The notes under the pieces: model-generated
Told to the model about the DNA's origin: nothing
What the model saw: the letters and a program-made list of their open reading frames with translations, nothing else
The model's database searches: none
Assembly: GCA_001873435.1 (NCBI GenBank)
Contig: MNZB01000003.1
Span: 70,427 to 134,426 of the forward strand
Length of the DNA: 64,000 nt
Direction: 5' to 3'
Source: Candidatus Pacebacteria bacterium CG2_30_36_39
Lineage (GTDB): Bacteria; Patescibacteriota; Microgenomatia; UBA1400; PJMF01
Program-made: the position numbers and the translations under genes
Shown here: positions 42,491 through 64,000 of the stretch, piece by piece
Layout of the letters: the number at the start of each line of letters is the position of its first letter
Numbering within the stretch: position 1 is the stretch's first letter

Positions 42491-43258
42491 ATGAGAAGAA
42501 GAGAAAAATTTGTTTTAGCTGCGGCATTTTTGAGTATTGGCCTTTTAGCGGTTCAATATACTATTTTAGAATGGCGTTATTACGCCATAGTTGGTTTGAT
42601 GATAATTACTTATTTTGTTTCTGCTTGGGCTCTACGTGATGATTTACAACGCCATGAATGGTTAACAGTTCTTCCTTTTCCAGTTATTTATACGGCTGCT
42701 GTGGCTTTATTTTATTTTCTATTACCTGGTGCCTTTCTTACTAGAGTAATTTTCTTGGCGCTATTTGGTGTAGGAATGTATGGTCTTTATTTGACTAGCA
42801 ATATTTTTTCAGTTGCCAAAGGTCGCACCATACAACTGTTGTATGCCGCACACGCTGTAGCCTTGTTTTTCACCCTTTTTACTTCAATGCTGCTGACTAA
42901 CACGATCTTCTCGTTACGTCTCCCTTTTTACAGCAATGGGGCGCTTGGTTTTTTAATTCATTTTCCATTAGTAATGATGAGTTTATGGTCTATTAAGTTA
43001 GAGTCATTTGTTGGTAAAGAAATTTTTCATAAAGCTACTTTGTTAACACTTGTGATAGCTGAGCTTATTTCTATGTTATCTCTTTTGCCTTTTCCTGCCT
43101 GGCATAGTGCTCTTTTTGTAATGGGTATTTTGTATATTGGCTTGGGTGTTTTACAAAGTCAGATTAGAGAGCGTCTTTTTCATAATACTTCCAATGAATA
43201 TAGCTTGGTGGCTGTTTTCTTGGCTTTCATTTTTTTCTTACTATTGCCTTGGAAATAG
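42491..43258 (+). CDS. hypothetical polytopic membrane protein
   Basis: 255 aa, 7-8 hydrophobic helices. Confidence 0.55.
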   Translation: MRRREKFVLAAAFLSIGLLAVQYTILEWRYYAIVGLMIITYFVSAWALRDDLQRHEWLTVLPFPVIYTAAVALFYFLLPGAFLTRVIFLALFGVGMYGLYLTSNIFSVAKGRTIQLLYAAHAVALFFTLFTSMLLTNTIFSLRLPFYSNGALGFLIHFPLVMMSLWSIKLESFVGKEIFHKATLLTLVIAELISMLSLLPFPAWHSALFVMGILYIGLGVLQSQIRERLFHNTSNEYSLVAVFLAFIFFLLLPWK

Positions 43259-43298
43259 GGAAGTTATAGCTTATTTTTTCATTTTTTAATCATTTTTT

Positions 43299-43317
43299 TA
43301 GCCTGGATACCAGGCTA
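43299..43317 (+). repeat. perfect palindrome TAGCCTGG-ATA-CCAGGCTA (possible terminator hairpin and repeat family seed)
   Basis: 8-bp arms, 3-bp loop, flanked by T-runs just after the 42491..43258 gene. The half motif recurs at 43506-43517 (GATACCAGGCTA) and 43759-43766 (TAGCCTGG). Confidence 0.5.
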
Positions 43318-43445
43318 GATTTTATAGTAGAGTGCGGTGGAGTACTCGAGAAATATCTCTGGTGAATAAGTATAGGGTTATTAAGCTAAAAATTACTAAT
43401 TTACTCTGGTGAGCTGAAATATTTAAAGGAAAAGTATTTATTGGG

Positions 43446-43568
43446 TGTGGATAAGAAATAAGTTTTGTAGCCGGAAAATGGGGAAGTGATGAACAAAAAA
43501 GGGAAGTGATACCAGGCTAAACAGGGGAAAGTGATATAGTTTGATATAGTCAGATGGATTGTGGAAAA
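43446..43568 (+). repeat. DnaA-box / triple iteron / DnaA-box cluster
   Basis: TGTGGATAA (43446-43454, perfect DnaA box complement). GGGAAGTGAT at 43481-43490 and 43501-43510 (exactly 20 bp apart) and GGGGAAAGTGAT at 43524-43535. TGTGGAAAA at 43560-43568. Confidence 0.5.
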
Positions 43569-44096
43569 CTATAGGCTTTCATGTGAAAAGTTATAGGACT
43601 TATATTTAAGATACCTCGAGTAACGGTGAGGTGTTGATCTAGTTTTATGTAGTACGCTGCTCAGATAAAGCATTAATTCTGCAAGAATAATTCCAGGCAT
43701 AGCTATAAAATTGGGTACAAAATGTCTAGACAGATCTTCTCGAGTAGGGGCAATCATTTAGCCTGGTAATATCAAGTAATAAATTATTGGTAGATATGAT
43801 CTTGTCGGAGAGAGGCAGAAAATAACCCGAATAGGTTTTTTTATCGATCCAAATCTGGTTTTAAAGGCATTTTTGGAAAGAGTGATAAGAAAATATTAAT
43901 TAATTAACAAAGAAAAAGATAAAATACCCCAGCGGGGTGGTAGTAGCGAGAGACTTACTACTCTCACTATTTGTGTGCCAAAACTACTCAGAACTAATAT
44001 GTCGCACAATATAACTTTTGCGACATAGACTATATTCAAAATCCGGAATGTGAGTTTTTCTTAAATATTAGTAATTTAGCTTATCTGATACTTATA

Positions 44097-44108
44097 TTGA
44101 TATATCAA
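44097..44108 (+). repeat. palindromic motif TTGATATATCAA (copy 1 of 4 related sites)
   Basis: Perfect 12-bp palindrome. A second perfect copy at 44241-44252. Related CTATATATCAA copies at about 44746-44757 and 46337-46347. Confidence 0.5.
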
Positions 44109-44305
44109 GGTATTTATTTATTATTTCTCTTCTTCCCTCTTTTTTTGTAAATCTTTTTTTAAGTCAAATACCTGGTTTAAATGTCTTTATTTGGGTTGCC
44201 AAAATCTGTAAAAAATATCTTTGCTAAAAATAGACTTCTGATTGATATATCAAGCTATAAAGCATAGACGATACATTGGTCGTTTAAGCCAGAAAAAGCC
44301 GTTTT

Positions 44306-44331
44306 TGAGGCATTTAGAAGCCTCATTTTTT
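44306..44331 (+). terminator. orphan intrinsic terminator in noncoding region
   Basis: TGAGGC-AUUUAGAA-GCCUCA followed by UUUUUU. No ORF upstream, so it may end a small RNA. Confidence 0.45.
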
Positions 44332-44780
44332 AGGTCTTTTGCAATGAGTTTTATTAATTGTTTTTCAAATCTTTATACTTCCACTTTCTAATCTTTGGCA
44401 AATAAACATTAGAGATTATTTTTTACTAACTAATGTTTTTGCTAACTTTTTTTGTTTTGATCAATCAGTTGATTTTAAAAAATAAAACCGTTTTTGACTG
44501 GCTGATTAATTGGCTTAAATGATGTATAAGATTTGGAGATTTTTTTGGCAGCTACTAAGTAAGTTAATTGCTAAAATAGATTTGTTCGAGAACAAGTCTA
44601 TGTAAAGACATAGGAGAAGAATTTTCTTTGTTACTCAACTACTAGATAAGAACCAGATTGGTTGTCTCGAGTTGACAGCATCCTCTTTTTTATTTTTAAT
44701 ATATCTTGATTTGGCTTAATGTATCAAAATATAGCAGGATAGTTAGAGCTATATATCAAGACATTTTTTCTCATATGGCT

Positions 44781-44809
44781 ATTAGCAGAATATACAATGC
44801 TCTGCTAAT
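44781..44809 (+). other. candidate Xer recombination (dif-like) site, copy A: ATTAGCAGA-N11-TCTGCTAAT
   Basis: 9-bp inverted arms around an 11-bp centre, 200 bp upstream of the recombinase gene. Can be read as 11-bp arms around a 7-bp centre (9/11 match). Confidence 0.4.
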
Positions 44810-45010
44810 GACTCATAGTATATAAATTTCTTTATCGAGTAGAAAGTAGTATTTTTGAAAAAAAACAATCAAATAGTAAGTTTTAATTCTCACTTCTTAG
44901 CTTTAGAAAAGCTGAATATTTTGACTTCCCCCATTATATGTTGAGTTTAGTTATAGAGCAAATAAAAACTTTACCTCGCTGATTGATTTCATTTACGGTA
45001 TAACTTAAGT

Positions 45011-45955
45011 ATGGCTGTTTCTACAGAACCCACTAAGGCTTTAATAGAATTTCTAGAATCAATAGAAGTTGAAAAAAATTTAAGTCAACTTACTTTGAGA
45101 AACTATAGCCATTATTTAAGACGTTTTAACGAATGGTTTGCTCAGCATGGATATAAGGATTTGTCTGAGTTAAACCAAGACAACTTATTAAAATACCGAG
45201 TTTTTCTAGCTAGGTATATTGATGATCAAGGCAGAACTTTATCTAAGAAAACTCAAAGTTATCATATTATTTCTTTAAGATCTTGGTTTAAATGGTTAAT
45301 AAGACATGATGCTGAAGTGCTTCATCCTGAAAAGATAGAGTTACCCAAGGCAGAGTCTACGCCGATGAAATTTGCTTCTGCTGAGAAAATAGAGATTCTC
45401 TTGAGTAAGCCAGATGTATCTGAGCCTCAAGGTTTGCGCGATCGAGCTATCTTGGAGGTTTTATTTTCAACTGGCTTACGTGTTAGCGAGCTTGTGAAGC
45501 TTAATCGAGACCAAATCGATACAAAACGTAGAGAATTTGGAGTGATTGGTAAAGGTAGGCGTCCTCGGGTGGTATTTTTGAGTGATCGGGCTGCTTCTTG
45601 GCTAGAACGTTGGTTGGCAACCAGAGAAGATGATTGGAAGCCAGTTTTTGTTCGTTTCTCTGGTAGTAAAGAAGCCAGGTTTGCTGATGGTACTGAAATG
45701 AGATTAACCACTAGAAGTGTTCAGAGATTAGTAGATCGCTATAGTCGCTTGGCTCATTTGCCTATTAAATTATCTCCTCACGGTATACGTCATAGTTTTG
45801 CCACAGACTTATTAAGCAATGGCGCTGGTTTACGTGATGTTCAAGAAATGTTGGGTCATAAAAATATCGCTACTACCCAAATTTATACTCACGTGACACG
45901 ACTGCAATTACGTAAAATTCATGAAGAACATCACTCTTTGAAAAAAGCGGAATAA
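45011..45955 (+). CDS. xerC: XerC/XerD-type tyrosine site-specific recombinase
   Basis: 314 aa. Core-binding N-domain. Catalytic motifs R..(LRVSEL), H-x-x-R (HGIRHSFAT), LGHKNIATTQIYTHV with the nucleophile Tyr. Confidence 0.85.
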   Translation: MAVSTEPTKALIEFLESIEVEKNLSQLTLRNYSHYLRRFNEWFAQHGYKDLSELNQDNLLKYRVFLARYIDDQGRTLSKKTQSYHIISLRSWFKWLIRHDAEVLHPEKIELPKAESTPMKFASAEKIEILLSKPDVSEPQGLRDRAILEVLFSTGLRVSELVKLNRDQIDTKRREFGVIGKGRRPRVVFLSDRAASWLERWLATREDDWKPVFVRFSGSKEARFADGTEMRLTTRSVQRLVDRYSRLAHLPIKLSPHGIRHSFATDLLSNGAGLRDVQEMLGHKNIATTQIYTHVTRLQLRKIHEEHHSLKKAE

Positions 45956-46287
45956 CTGATTTTTGTTATGTTTATTTATATTAATATTCATATTTAGATA
46001 TATTGTTATATTTAGTATATTTTTGTTTCATTAATACATAATAAACAATATTTTGATCGTAGTAAAAATACATTTTTTTAACTTTCATTTCAATAAAAAT
46101 GTATTTGTTATTTATTACTCCCCTACTCTCTATTTTCTTTATCAATCTTATAAATTTATTTTTTTAATTAAAATAGCTACATTACTAATAATATTTTGGT
46201 GAAGTGGGCTTGTCTTTTAAATATCTAAAATAGCTTGCTATAAAAGTCCAATCATCGAGAGCATCTGGAGAAAATAGGTTATAAGTC

Positions 46288-46316
46288 ATTAGCAGACAGA
46301 TAAAATTACTGCTAAT
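46288..46316 (+). other. candidate Xer recombination (dif-like) site, copy B: ATTAGCAG-N13-CTGCTAAT
   Basis: The same 8-bp inverted arms as copy A, 330 bp downstream of the recombinase gene. Central region differs in sequence and length. Confidence 0.35.
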
Positions 46317-46446
46317 AACCTTTTTTAGCATATATAACCTATATATCAATCTATTTTATTGAATAATATAAAACGCTCTTCAATTGAATAGGCTGGTGGA
46401 ATTTTATTTCAGAGATGGTACAATTCTCTACGTTCTTTAAATATCA

Positions 46447-62667: not shown

Positions 62668-63257
62668 TTGTTTCTTAGGGTGATTCCAGTCTGAAAACTT
62701 TCCAAAGCTGTATCTCTGTCACTTATGTTGGAACTGCCGATTTTGAGGTCAAAGGTGATTCCTACGTAGTAAGAATCTTCTTCCCCGCTCAAACACATAA
62801 ATCTTAAATTAGACATAGCAACTTCATCTGAGGTGAGATAGTAGTAGTCGTTGACAGCGGTGGAGTACGAGGCGATGCGACCATTTTCAAGTGGATAGGT
62901 TTGTAGAGTTGTTATATATCCGTCTAGTCCTTGAACTGCGATGTTGGTCATTGGTGATTGGGCATCGTTATTGCAAATGGTTGTGCCATCTAGTCCTGCT
63001 ACTAGTTTTTGTGAGTTGCGGAGGATAAATTCTATTTTGGCTAGCGCCGCTTCTCCTTCGCTGTTTACTTTCTGTTCAATGCTGGCTTTGGTAGATGAAA
63101 TGATAAATGTTAGGAACATAGTAGTAACGGTCATCATGACTAATACGGTTAAAGCAGTTACTACGATTAGTTCGATTAGAGTAAAACCTGATAAGGTGTT
63201 GATGTGGGTTTTTCTCATGTTTTTATTGTAAGCTTTTTGGTTGGATTTCTCTTGCAT
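62664..63257 (-). CDS. type IV minor pilin / pseudopilin
   Basis: Prepilin signal G/FTLIELIVVTALTVLVMM. Convergent with the preceding gene. Confidence 0.7.
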   Translation of the reverse strand: MQEKSNQKAYNKNMRKTHINTLSGFTLIELIVVTALTVLVMMTVTTMFLTFIISSTKASIEQKVNSEGEAALAKIEFILRNSQKLVAGLDGTTICNNDAQSPMTNIAVQGLDGYITTLQTYPLENGRIASYSTAVNDYYYLTSDEVAMSNLRFMCLSGEEDSYYVGITFDLKIGSSNISDRDTALESFQTGITLRNN

Positions 63258-64000
63258 AGAAATGAGCAGACTTCATTTTTCCAGGGATATTGACGGTTAG
63301 GTCTGGGCGGAAGATAAAGACTTCAGCTGGCTCCTGGTTGTTTACCGAGTTGTCTCCTGGTACTGCGAAGCTACGGTTGAGTTGAATGCCTTCCCAGCCT
63401 ACAAAGGTGCCTGCGCCAATGAATTTTTTGTCGCTTACATCTTGTAGTCCGTCTATTCTTATAATTTTGTCGGTAATAAAAACACCCTCCACTAAAGGAG
63501 CATTAGCGGTTCTGGGATTGAAGGTGGCGTTTGTGTGACCGACGTTGGCTGAGATGTTGATGTTGCCATGAACGATAAAGGCTAAAAATCCTATGTTTCC
63601 TTTTTCTACTGTGATAATTTGTTGGTCTGTTCCGCTGGTGTCGTCAATGTTTAGGTCTCCGTTGATAAAGACAATGATTTGTTCAGAGTTTGTGACGTGC
63701 CAAGAGTTTAAGTCGTTGATAGTAAAGTTTCCTTCATGAAGGTAGATGCCTGGGTTGGTGCTTGGTACTGGTTTTTGTGAGCTGGGTAGGTTAATGGCTT
63801 CTTTTTGCATTTTTTTGTAGAAATAGTTGTATCCTTCTTCTGGTAAGTCAAAGCTCATGGCGTTAGCTTGAATAGCGTTGCTTCTGCTGGTGGTGGTATG
63901 TAAAAAAACGTTGCCTGTGGTTTGGCTGGTAGAGATTTTTCCTTGGTTGGTAAAGGCAAAACCAGGACTTTCCATGTTCATGTCGATATCACTATCTATT
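63223..64000 (-). CDS. hypothetical large pilus-associated protein (partial, may continue past right edge)
   Basis: No in-frame stop between the listed ATG 63981 and the window end. Beta-rich sequence. Possibly a PilY1/tip-adhesin-like protein. Confidence 0.45.
   Translation of the reverse strand, partial: IDSDIDMNMESPGFAFTNQGKISTSQTTGNVFLHTTTSRSNAIQANAMSFDLPEEGYNYFYKKMQKEAINLPSSQKPVPSTNPGIYLHEGNFTINDLNSWHVTNSEQIIVFINGDLNIDDTSGTDQQIITVEKGNIGFLAFIVHGNINISANVGHTNATFNPRTANAPLVEGVFITDKIIRIDGLQDVSDKKFIGAGTFVGWEGIQLNRSFAVPGDNSVNNQEPAEVFIFRPDLTVNIPGKMKSAHFYAREIQPKSLQ

Follow-up and report, generated by a model that had tools for sequence, protein, structure and literature searches.

What does a 123-bp segment that combines short direct repeats with sequences resembling DnaA boxes do in a chromosome of the candidate phyla radiation (CPR)? 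The segment occupies positions 43446-43568 of a 64-kb stretch (the window, meaning the whole of the DNA analyzed) of contig MNZB01000003.1 of Candidatus Pacebacteria bacterium CG2_30_36_39, where it opens a 1,752-bp non-coding gap (43259-45010, 31% G+C). A sequence-only reading had suggested an iteron-type plasmid or phage origin, an oriC region or a regulatory array for a DNA-binding protein, and all the motif positions it reported are exact. The answer favored here, with a confidence slightly better than even, is that the segment forms the outer part of a dif region near the replication terminus, and that its repeats resemble FtsK-orienting polar sequences (KOPS). The segment contains the following elements, two of which are termed M1 and M2.

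43446-43454, minus strand: perfect DnaA-box 9-mer TGTGGATAA (TTATCCACA on the minus strand), lineage-specific.
43481-43490 and 43501-43510, plus strand: copies 1 and 2 of the 10-mer GGGAAGTGAT, spaced 20 bp apart.
43524-43535, plus strand: copy 3, GGGGAAAGTGAT, 23 bp beyond copy 2.
43477-43490, plus strand: repeat 1, AATGGGGAAGTGAT, with core GGGGAAGTG, a member of the polar GGGNAGWG family that faces dif.
43497-43510, plus strand: repeat 2, AAAGGGAAGTGAT, with the same word as repeat 1, shared with close relatives only.
43522-43535, plus strand: repeat 3, CAGGGGAAAGTGAT, adjoining M1; relatives usually read CAGGGAAGAG-TGATATAG.
43532-43546, plus strand: M1, TGATATAGTTTGATA (invariant element TGATATAGTNTGATA), identical in 43 of 43 aligned genomes.
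Up to 43551, plus strand: second, overlapping copy of M1, TGATATAGTC, a 10-bp direct repeat.
43560-43568, plus strand: M2, TGTGGAAAA, a minus-strand match to the DnaA-box consensus TTWTNCACA.

The repeat units extend to 16 nt with an A-rich lead (AAAATGGGGAAGTGAT, AAAAAAGGGAAGTGAT and AACAGGGGAAAGTGAT). Their clustering exceeds chance: when a triple repeat is defined as two 10-mer copies lying within 30 nt and a further copy with one mismatch or none, the window has a single one, whereas Markov-shuffled windows average 0.03 and only 3 of 100 shuffles contained any. The three supposed iterons are top-strand copies of the word GGGNAGWG, the last ones before a dif-like site at 44000-44027. RGGGNAG shows a ratio of top-strand to bottom-strand copies of 23:2 before position 44000, of 6:12 from the site to 67.5 kb and of 1:8 farther to the right (Fisher p = 1.3e-4); the switch falls between the last top-strand copies, at 43480 and 43500, which belong to these same repeats, and the first bottom-strand copy, at 44132.

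The same polarity is seen in 85 non-redundant relatives. GGGGAG is distributed 191:6 to the left of the site and 49:147 to its right, flips within the 0-500 bp bin at the site, and climbs in density from 0.4-0.5 per kb (-4 to -1 kb) to 0.86 per kb (-1 to -0.5 kb) and 1.16 per kb (-0.5 kb to 0). An unbiased scan of these relatives for k-mers pointing at the site from both sides, with the module of repeats, M1 and M2 itself left out, ranks AGGGGAG first (99:2 left, 21:100 right). GGGNAGWG-type words, scanned as GRGNAGWG, are split 186:14 to the left of dif and 61:186 to the right; among individual words, GGGAAGTG is found 15:0 on the left and 2:5 on the right in the 85 relatives, and GGGAAGAG 12:1 and 2:20. 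The flip is present within plus-strand and within minus-strand genes alike, and on the right flank the word bias opposes the skew in base composition, including that at third codon positions (GC3 skew). A distant lineage with another dif site shows words at 27:0 versus 4:25 (p = 4e-12); word counts from related loci are non-independent events, but the two lineages that agree are deeply separated. KOPS (GGGNAGGG) and the SpoIIIE recognition sequences (SRS) are defined by the same traits, namely a bias to the leading strand, convergence on dif and a density that rises toward dif (PMC5357621).

The point on which these words converge is marked by a palindrome and, farther downstream, by a recombinase gene.

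44000-44027, plus strand: dif-like core ATGTCGCACAA-TATAAC-TTTTGCGACAT, 28 bp in an 11-6-11 arrangement, an imperfect palindrome with an AT-rich center.
45011-45955, plus strand: Xer-type tyrosine recombinase of 314 aa with Pfam domains Phage_integrase and SAM_1.

The dif-like site is the most conserved block of the gap, with 35 nt identical in many genomes, and lies 460-520 bp downstream of the repeats and about 1 kb upstream of the single Xer-like gene. In register, it matches E. coli dif at 17 of 28 positions and B. subtilis dif at 16 of 28 (reference sequences from PMC3025954), where random 28-mers average 9; the chance probability of an identity of at least 16/28 to dif is 0.002. Changes in its arms are non-compensatory (TGCGAC to TACGAC; ATGTCGCA to ATGACGCA), and the 28-bp palindrome is therefore a predicted protein site and not an RNA stem. 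The recombinase scores 244 bits against the NCBIfam model for XerD, 241 for XerC and 194 for XerA, every score being below the family cut-off, and orthologs that are 55-82% identical occur in 80 genomes. In a distant CPR lineage the 28-bp palindrome has another sequence, ACTGAGTATAA-TATCTC-TTACACTCAGT, and overlaps the -10 element of that lineage's xer promoter; the Xer protein there has diverged as well, so that the site has changed together with the recombinase. The site is probably the target at which Xer would resolve chromosome dimers. In two relatives (L056 and L059) the core is inverted relative to M1/M2 and xer, and a second dif-like copy, direct or inverted, lies 230-1200 bp off in L032, L041, L046, L048, L033, L043, L050 and others. 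Such inverted or extra copies may be scars of element integration at dif.

Strand composition suggests that the locus lies on the terminus side of the chromosome. The sequence-only reading had proposed GC skew as a check, and the coding-strand GC3 skew has the same sign on either side of the locus (left, +0.19 for plus-strand and -0.24 for minus-strand genes; right, +0.22 and -0.26), hence there is no origin signal. The top strand is G-rich on both sides of the gap whatever the direction of the genes, and 44 of 49 relatives show no composition switch at the locus (within 6 kb of dif). In sequence extended by 10 kb past the right end of the window, whose overlap is identical to the window, GC, AT and GC3 skew all reverse at about 67-68 kb, the top strand being leading to the left and lagging to the right, as at a terminus; the sequence runs 5.6 kb beyond this switch, which could, though less probably, be an inversion boundary. 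Because this terminus-type switch lies at about 67-68 kb, the module appears to be located about 24 kb from the fork-meeting point. A mid-replichore placement, neither origin nor terminus, had been considered from the 64-kb window and was overturned by the switch in the extension. Between 44 and 67 kb, the polar words read as 'right of dif' while base composition still reads as 'left replichore'. From 63223-64000 to about 69 kb, four large open reading frames (ORFs) lack Pfam matches and G+C content is raised (47% at 64-66 kb versus about 36%); three of the four have a pronounced GC skew at third positions (top-strand values of about 0.26 to 0.8). This block directly precedes the skew switch and could be an island of foreign or rapidly evolving DNA at the terminus.

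An origin, whether of the iteron type or a chromosomal oriC, active or vestigial, is extremely improbable at this locus. It was suggested by direct repeats and a DnaA-box-like site in AT-rich DNA of a long intergenic region near gyrA/gyrB, and AT-rich tracts follow the box in distant lineages. However, the skew is not of the origin type, with the top strand leading on both sides and a terminus-type switch 24 kb off; the highly expressed upstream genes rpsB and tsf point toward the locus; and the repeats are members of a genome-wide polar word family. Iteron origins contain at least three near-identical units of 17-22 bp, whereas the units here measure 10-16 bp and copies 1 and 3 are retained as the degenerate 8-mer GRGNAGWG. 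Nor is there an adjacent initiator: the gap is flanked by a 255-aa membrane protein and the Xer recombinase, with like synteny in all relatives. The observation that no rep or dnaA gene is adjacent holds for the window and for 199 related loci, in none of which a DnaA signature was found, and the hallmarks of oriC, namely an origin-type reversal, a DnaA-box cluster and linkage to dnaA/dnaN, are all lacking. The notion of a plasmid or phage remnant fares no better, as the synteny YebC - membrane protein - module - dif - xer - gyrA is fixed across lineages and no mobile replicon is involved. Judging from this synteny, kept across a class-level clade, the region is vertically inherited chromosomal DNA and not a vestige. 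Reading M1 as a DnaA-trio or DNA unwinding element (DUE) was rejected as well, since the trio periodicity does not fit on sequence reasoning and the skew contradicts it, and so was a canonical parS site, for which the best match by eye was 11-12 of 16. The protein addressed by the repeats would most plausibly be an FtsK-type translocase heading for dif, and no replication initiator.

The repeats are not the only conserved part of the segment. In dozens of genomes of Pacebacteria/Microgenomates, colinear blocks separated by variable spacers recur upstream of the recombinase ortholog. Repeats 1 and 3, both of them conserved, have the consensus A-tract plus RGGGNAGWG, repeat 1 at about -50 from M1 in most loci and repeat 3 at -6 to -15; repeat 2, whose columns score poorly, is recognizable in L014-L018 and lost in other lineages. 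Over the 100 nt that precede M1, the repeat motif shows a 28-fold enrichment (152 loci). Alignment columns T68-T81, which correspond to M1, are invariant or nearly so in 43 genomes, and M1 marks a single locus per genome, with one significant profile match in the 64-kb window. M2 is conserved as TGTGGAWAA(C/G)T, is always co-oriented with M1, and mostly lies 17-77 bp after it. It is followed by weaker units of the form 'box + TATAGG', which are also conserved.

43569-43575, plus strand: CTATAGG.
43582-43589, plus strand: TGTGAAAA.
43591-43599, plus strand: TTATAGGAC.

These weaker units, TGTGAAAA/CGTGAAAA with a neighboring CTATAGG, come after M2 in the window. The combination CCTATAR-TTTTCACR is located upstream of M1 in other lineages and downstream of it, in the opposite orientation, in the window's lineage; this flip preserves a double-stranded site and no RNA sequence, which argues for recognition of double-stranded DNA. 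A metagenome scan for M1 plus M2 returned 119 loci with a same-strand Xer gene downstream wherever enough sequence was available, including a distant lineage with an Xer 30-35% identical and the synteny YebC - membrane protein - module - xer - gyrA. Both motifs remain unchanged while the dif arms and the Xer protein (down to 30% identity) diverge. They are single-copy and always lie on one side of dif in a fixed orientation, at M2-to-dif distances of 152-941 bp that show no helical phasing (best R about 0.2, 64 distinct distances). M1, TGTGGAWAA and TTTTCACR/CTATAGG may be described as a single-copy array of predicted double-stranded sites for at least one further factor. The hedge of the sequence-only reading, a regulatory array for a DNA-binding protein, has held up to this extent: the repeats form a real and conserved array, which appears to be double-stranded and functionally tied to the neighboring recombinase. 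To our knowledge, nothing comparable to the invariant motif beside dif exists near the dif sites of model bacteria.

On the KOPS-like reading, the G-rich words would act in one orientation as KOPS/SRS-type loading sites for the gamma domain of FtsK/SpoIIIE. A loaded translocase would pump DNA toward dif, and the cluster of copies just before dif would serve as a last signal directing the motor onto the Xer-dif complex, where it would switch on chromosome-dimer resolution at division. That an FtsK/SpoIIIE-type motor is the reader of the words we infer by analogy with known systems. Several observations weigh against this reading. The bare 6-mer GGGAAG is weakly polar on the right (68:80), and a compact lineage has a top-strand GGGAAGTGGAGGGGAG just right of dif that is aimed away from it. 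A composition-matched reversed control word flipped too, less strongly, though it overlaps the word family and is an uninformative control. A Pfam scan of 20 window ORFs, including all those of at least 600 aa, detected neither an FtsK gene nor a gamma domain. The dif site and the word reversal lie 23-24 kb from the GC-skew switch, farther than is usual for dif; this distance is a few per cent of a genome of about 1 Mb (an estimate from relatives' contigs of 0.85-1.17 Mb). Lastly, the conserved repeats hold fixed offsets from M1 (about -50 and -10), which a plain scatter of KOPS does not need. Because of these fixed offsets, the repeats may also belong to the M1/M2 array, serving it besides or instead of steering FtsK.

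The fixed offsets bring in another explanation, which we regard as doubtful but as deserving consideration: the repeats, M1, M2 and TTTTCACR/CTATAGG could together form one nucleoprotein platform for terminus- or dif-specific proteins, with any KOPS likeness secondary. Such a platform could control Xer in the manner of the cer/psi accessory sequences, form a polar fork barrier, or load FtsK beside dif. It would agree with motifs that are single-copy and fixed in side and orientation relative to dif, with repeats at set distances from M1, and with the size of the module, which in compact lineages ends about 150 bp from the core and is comparable to the cer/psi accessory regions. That M1 and M2 outlast both the dif arms and Xer (30% identity) would mean that a conserved host factor reads them. 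However, the spacing of 152-941 bp between M2 and dif is unphased, 51 of 52 phage copies of the core lack the module, no candidate binding protein was identified, and the polar-word statistics account for the repeats without a platform. A related proposal, likewise tentative and held with marginally less confidence, is that M1, M2 and TTTTCACR/CTATAGG constitute a previously unknown terminus cis-element of CPR bacteria. Its role could be that of a polar fork barrier, of an FtsK-loading or Xer-activating platform, or of a checkpoint read by DnaA. If this were true, the element would couple dimer resolution to the replication cycle, with dif at least 20 kb off the fork-meeting point.

The possibility that DnaA reads the segment depends on its boxes. 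Stringent boxes reach a density of 0.88 per kb in the gaps against 0.07 per kb in the flanks (12-fold), a difference that comes wholly from M2; each locus has one conserved stringent box, and only at M2 is the consensus match kept in position and orientation. In the comparison with relatives, the claim that the repeats are bracketed by DnaA boxes stands for this second box and fails for the perfect one. When one mismatch is allowed, the 64-kb window has 18 boxes where 19.7 are expected and thus shows no enrichment, so that bracketing is statistically weak there. The perfect box at 43446 (-87), the sole extra stringent box in the window's profile, falls in a column unconserved across 25 relatives and is missing at the aligned position in the closest ones, L014 and L016. 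It is probably a lineage-specific chance occurrence.

DnaA could still bind M2 as part of a regulatory locus outside oriC, either a DnaA-controlled promoter or a titrating or modulating site; datA, DARS and the DnaA-box clusters of B. subtilis are precedents for the latter. This we consider unlikely. M1 is similar to an extended -10 element (TGnTAnnnT) and is directly followed by the box, and TGnTAAGAT-type promoters serve xer in relatives. M2 fits the stringent TTWTNCACA in nearly every genome and in many reads TGTGGATAACT, the same as the E. coli R4 box; weaker TTTTTCACA-type boxes lie about 22 bp apart, and the order of direct repeats followed by TGTGGATAAC mimics the DUE-R1 end of E. coli oriC. 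However, there is one strong box per locus, the position is close to the terminus, where no DnaA regulatory site is known to us, and no conserved transcript structure or terminator lies downstream. A promoter would leave the 15 invariant bases unexplained, and xer has its own promoter at the start codon, for which reason M1 was also rejected as the xer promoter. The latter appears to be of the extended -10 type (TGnTAAGAT / GGTATAAC) and is located 5-8 nt ahead of the ATG in the window and relatives (44990-45013), a proximity that suggests a leaderless xer mRNA.

The remaining part of the gap contains further conserved or repeated elements.

43511-43521, plus strand: 11-bp inverted-repeat arm ACCAGGCTAAA, with its partner TTTAGCCTGGT at 43756-43766.
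43680-43690, plus strand: conserved block TGCAAGAATAA, from the alignment of relatives.
43824-43832, plus strand: conserved block AACCCGAAT, from the alignment of relatives.
44262-44331, plus strand: conserved block with a two-way terminator-like hairpin at its end (AAAAAGCCGTTTTTGAGGC...GCCTCATTTTTT).
44779-44823, plus strand: inverted repeat resembling CIRCE (controlling inverted repeat of chaperone expression), TTAGCAGAA-N9-CTCTGCTAA, followed by TGACTCATAGTATAT.
46279-46317, minus strand: second CIRCE-like 9-N9-9 copy, outside the gap; the pair flanks xer in inverted orientation.

The sequence CCAGGCTA/TAGCCTGG has four copies in the 64-kb window, all inside the gap at 43299-43766. One pair, at 43299-43317, makes up the terminator hairpin of the gene upstream; the second pair, at 43512-43519 and 43759-43766, belongs to the 11-bp inverted repeat, which encloses M1/M2 and 230 bp of conserved DNA and whose arms are swapped in other lineages. 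An invertible promoter switch between these repeats has no support, all population assemblies (100% or 99.98% identical) and all relatives having one orientation. The terminator-like structure at 44262-44331 reads AAAAAGCCG TTTTTGA GGC ... GCCTCA TTTTTT and, in several relatives, has the opposite orientation with respect to dif; CCGTTTTTGA is also found at 44488 and in the terminator after tRNA-Ala (46546). A perfect palindrome, TTGATATATCAA, occurs between dif and xer at 44097-44108 and 44243-44254, with a partial third copy at about 44751-44760, and its second copy is kept in relatives. The CIRCE-like repeat has more copies elsewhere in related loci and may be the operator of a wider regulon.

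Could these blocks belong to a large structured non-coding RNA, or to several small RNAs, of the 1.75-kb gap? The gap lacks an open reading frame; coding or recoded genes were rejected, with no more than 66 stop-free codons in any frame, translation table 4 included. Its conserved blocks are split by variable spacers, its plus strand folds somewhat better than shuffled sequence (z = -2.7), and it contains six terminator-like hairpins against 0.8 expected. An RNA is nevertheless very unlikely. No Rfam match was found in the window or in 11 relatives, tRNAs outside the gap excepted; the asymmetric motifs occur in either orientation and on either side of M1 among lineages; the arm changes of the 28-bp palindrome are non-compensatory; and the hairpins predicted in the window are lost in its closest relatives. 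Large or housekeeping RNAs (RNase P, tmRNA, SRP, 6S or a new large RNA) were rejected on the lack of an Rfam match and on inconsistent duplex and hairpin tests, and the gap sequence does not fit the conserved regions of RNase P.

The gap is preceded by rpsB, tsf and genes for a LytR_C protein, a TPR protein, YebC and the 255-aa polytopic membrane protein, and is followed by the Xer-type recombinase, tRNA-Ala, a hypothetical gene, gyrA, a DHH phosphoesterase and gyrB. The membrane-protein gene (42491-43258) ends with a terminator hairpin at 43297-43319. Its product has no Pfam or NCBIfam match, and the gene, preceded by YebC, keeps its synteny with the module and xer in the distant lineage as well; the protein may be functionally linked to the terminus locus. 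The window DNA is 100% or 99.98% identical in many groundwater assemblies, including GCA_002788655.1, and the closest named relatives are Candidatus Pacebacteria.

The dif core also occurs outside cellular genomes. Fifty-two viral contigs of IMG/VR (L116 and L333-L383) carry it as GTCGCACAATNTNNCTTNTRCGAC in unrelated flanks. No close Xer homolog is present in the available sequence of these contigs, which are mostly fragments; on L337, a tyrosine-recombinase match of 25% identity lies about 1.3 kb away from the core. Genes for a large terminase, a portal protein and an HNH endonuclease mark L116 as a verified phage fragment. The M1/M2 module is missing from 51 of the 52 viral copies of the core, and an exact search for M1 in the viral contigs gave chance-level matches, L116 excepted. 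A viral dif core without a close Xer homolog is the pattern expected of elements that borrow the host Xer/dif system, and these contigs are apparent candidates for phages of this kind, similar to integrative mobile elements exploiting Xer (IMEX).

CPR/Patescibacteria are uncultivated, and their replication, segregation and division are almost uncharacterized. Our literature search found nothing on dif, KOPS-like words or an M1/M2-type module in Patescibacteria, nor anything relevant on CPR origins. The present results map a CPR terminus, with its dif site, its recombinase, a KOPS-like word that persists across differing dif sites, and apparent site-borrowing phages. With the dif site and the steering word, CPR assemblies can be oriented and checked, and integrated elements can be spotted. 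Two features depart from the known pattern, the invariant module next to dif and the conserved distance between dif and the skew switch, and the invariant motif is a lead to a new component of terminus biology.

Among known systems, iteron origins and the DUE-R1 end of E. coli oriC share with this locus short direct repeats beside a TGTGGATAAC-type box; they differ from it in that no initiator gene, box cluster or origin-type skew is present here and the locus is next to a terminus. The accessory sequences of plasmid cer and psi resemble it in having a putative protein-binding block on a fixed side of a Xer core site. Unlike them, the block described here is chromosomal, its distance is variable and unphased, and its motifs are unrelated to ArgR, ArcA and PepA sites; a cer/psi-like arrangement was rejected for want of a fixed, phased distance to the core. 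IMEX elements, of which CTX-phi and TLC-phi of Vibrio are examples, have a dif-like attP and rely on the host Xer. The 52 viral contigs are like them in having the host dif core, unrelated flanks and no close Xer homolog; they are unlike them in being mostly fragments whose likeness is judged from sequence alone, and L116 has tailed-phage packaging genes, whereas we know of no tailed phage among the known IMEX.

The combination of one Xer gene with a near-palindromic site within about 0.1-1.5 kb is also that of XerS/difSL in streptococci, XerH/difH in epsilon-proteobacteria and archaeal XerA/dif, and such a linked 'module' of site and gene is a hallmark of single-recombinase Xer systems (PMC5357621). 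In contrast to XerS and XerH, the protein here has the size of XerC/D/A (314 aa) and scores equally for XerC and XerD, and in contrast to the 31-bp difSL, the site is a classic 28-bp 11-6-11 one. The closest parallels to the words are KOPS (E. coli GGGNAGGG), SRS (B. subtilis GAGAAGGG) and the archaeal short polarized sequences (ASPS), all of them polar words that converge on dif, as here. Compared with KOPS, the present words are G-rich 8-mers, GGGNAGWG, that differ at essentially one position; two copies are fixed beside an invariant motif, the reversal is located 23-24 kb from the GC-skew switch, and the reader protein is a predicted one. Like KOPS, they lie to more than 90% on one strand of the left arm, reverse at dif, and become denser as dif is approached.

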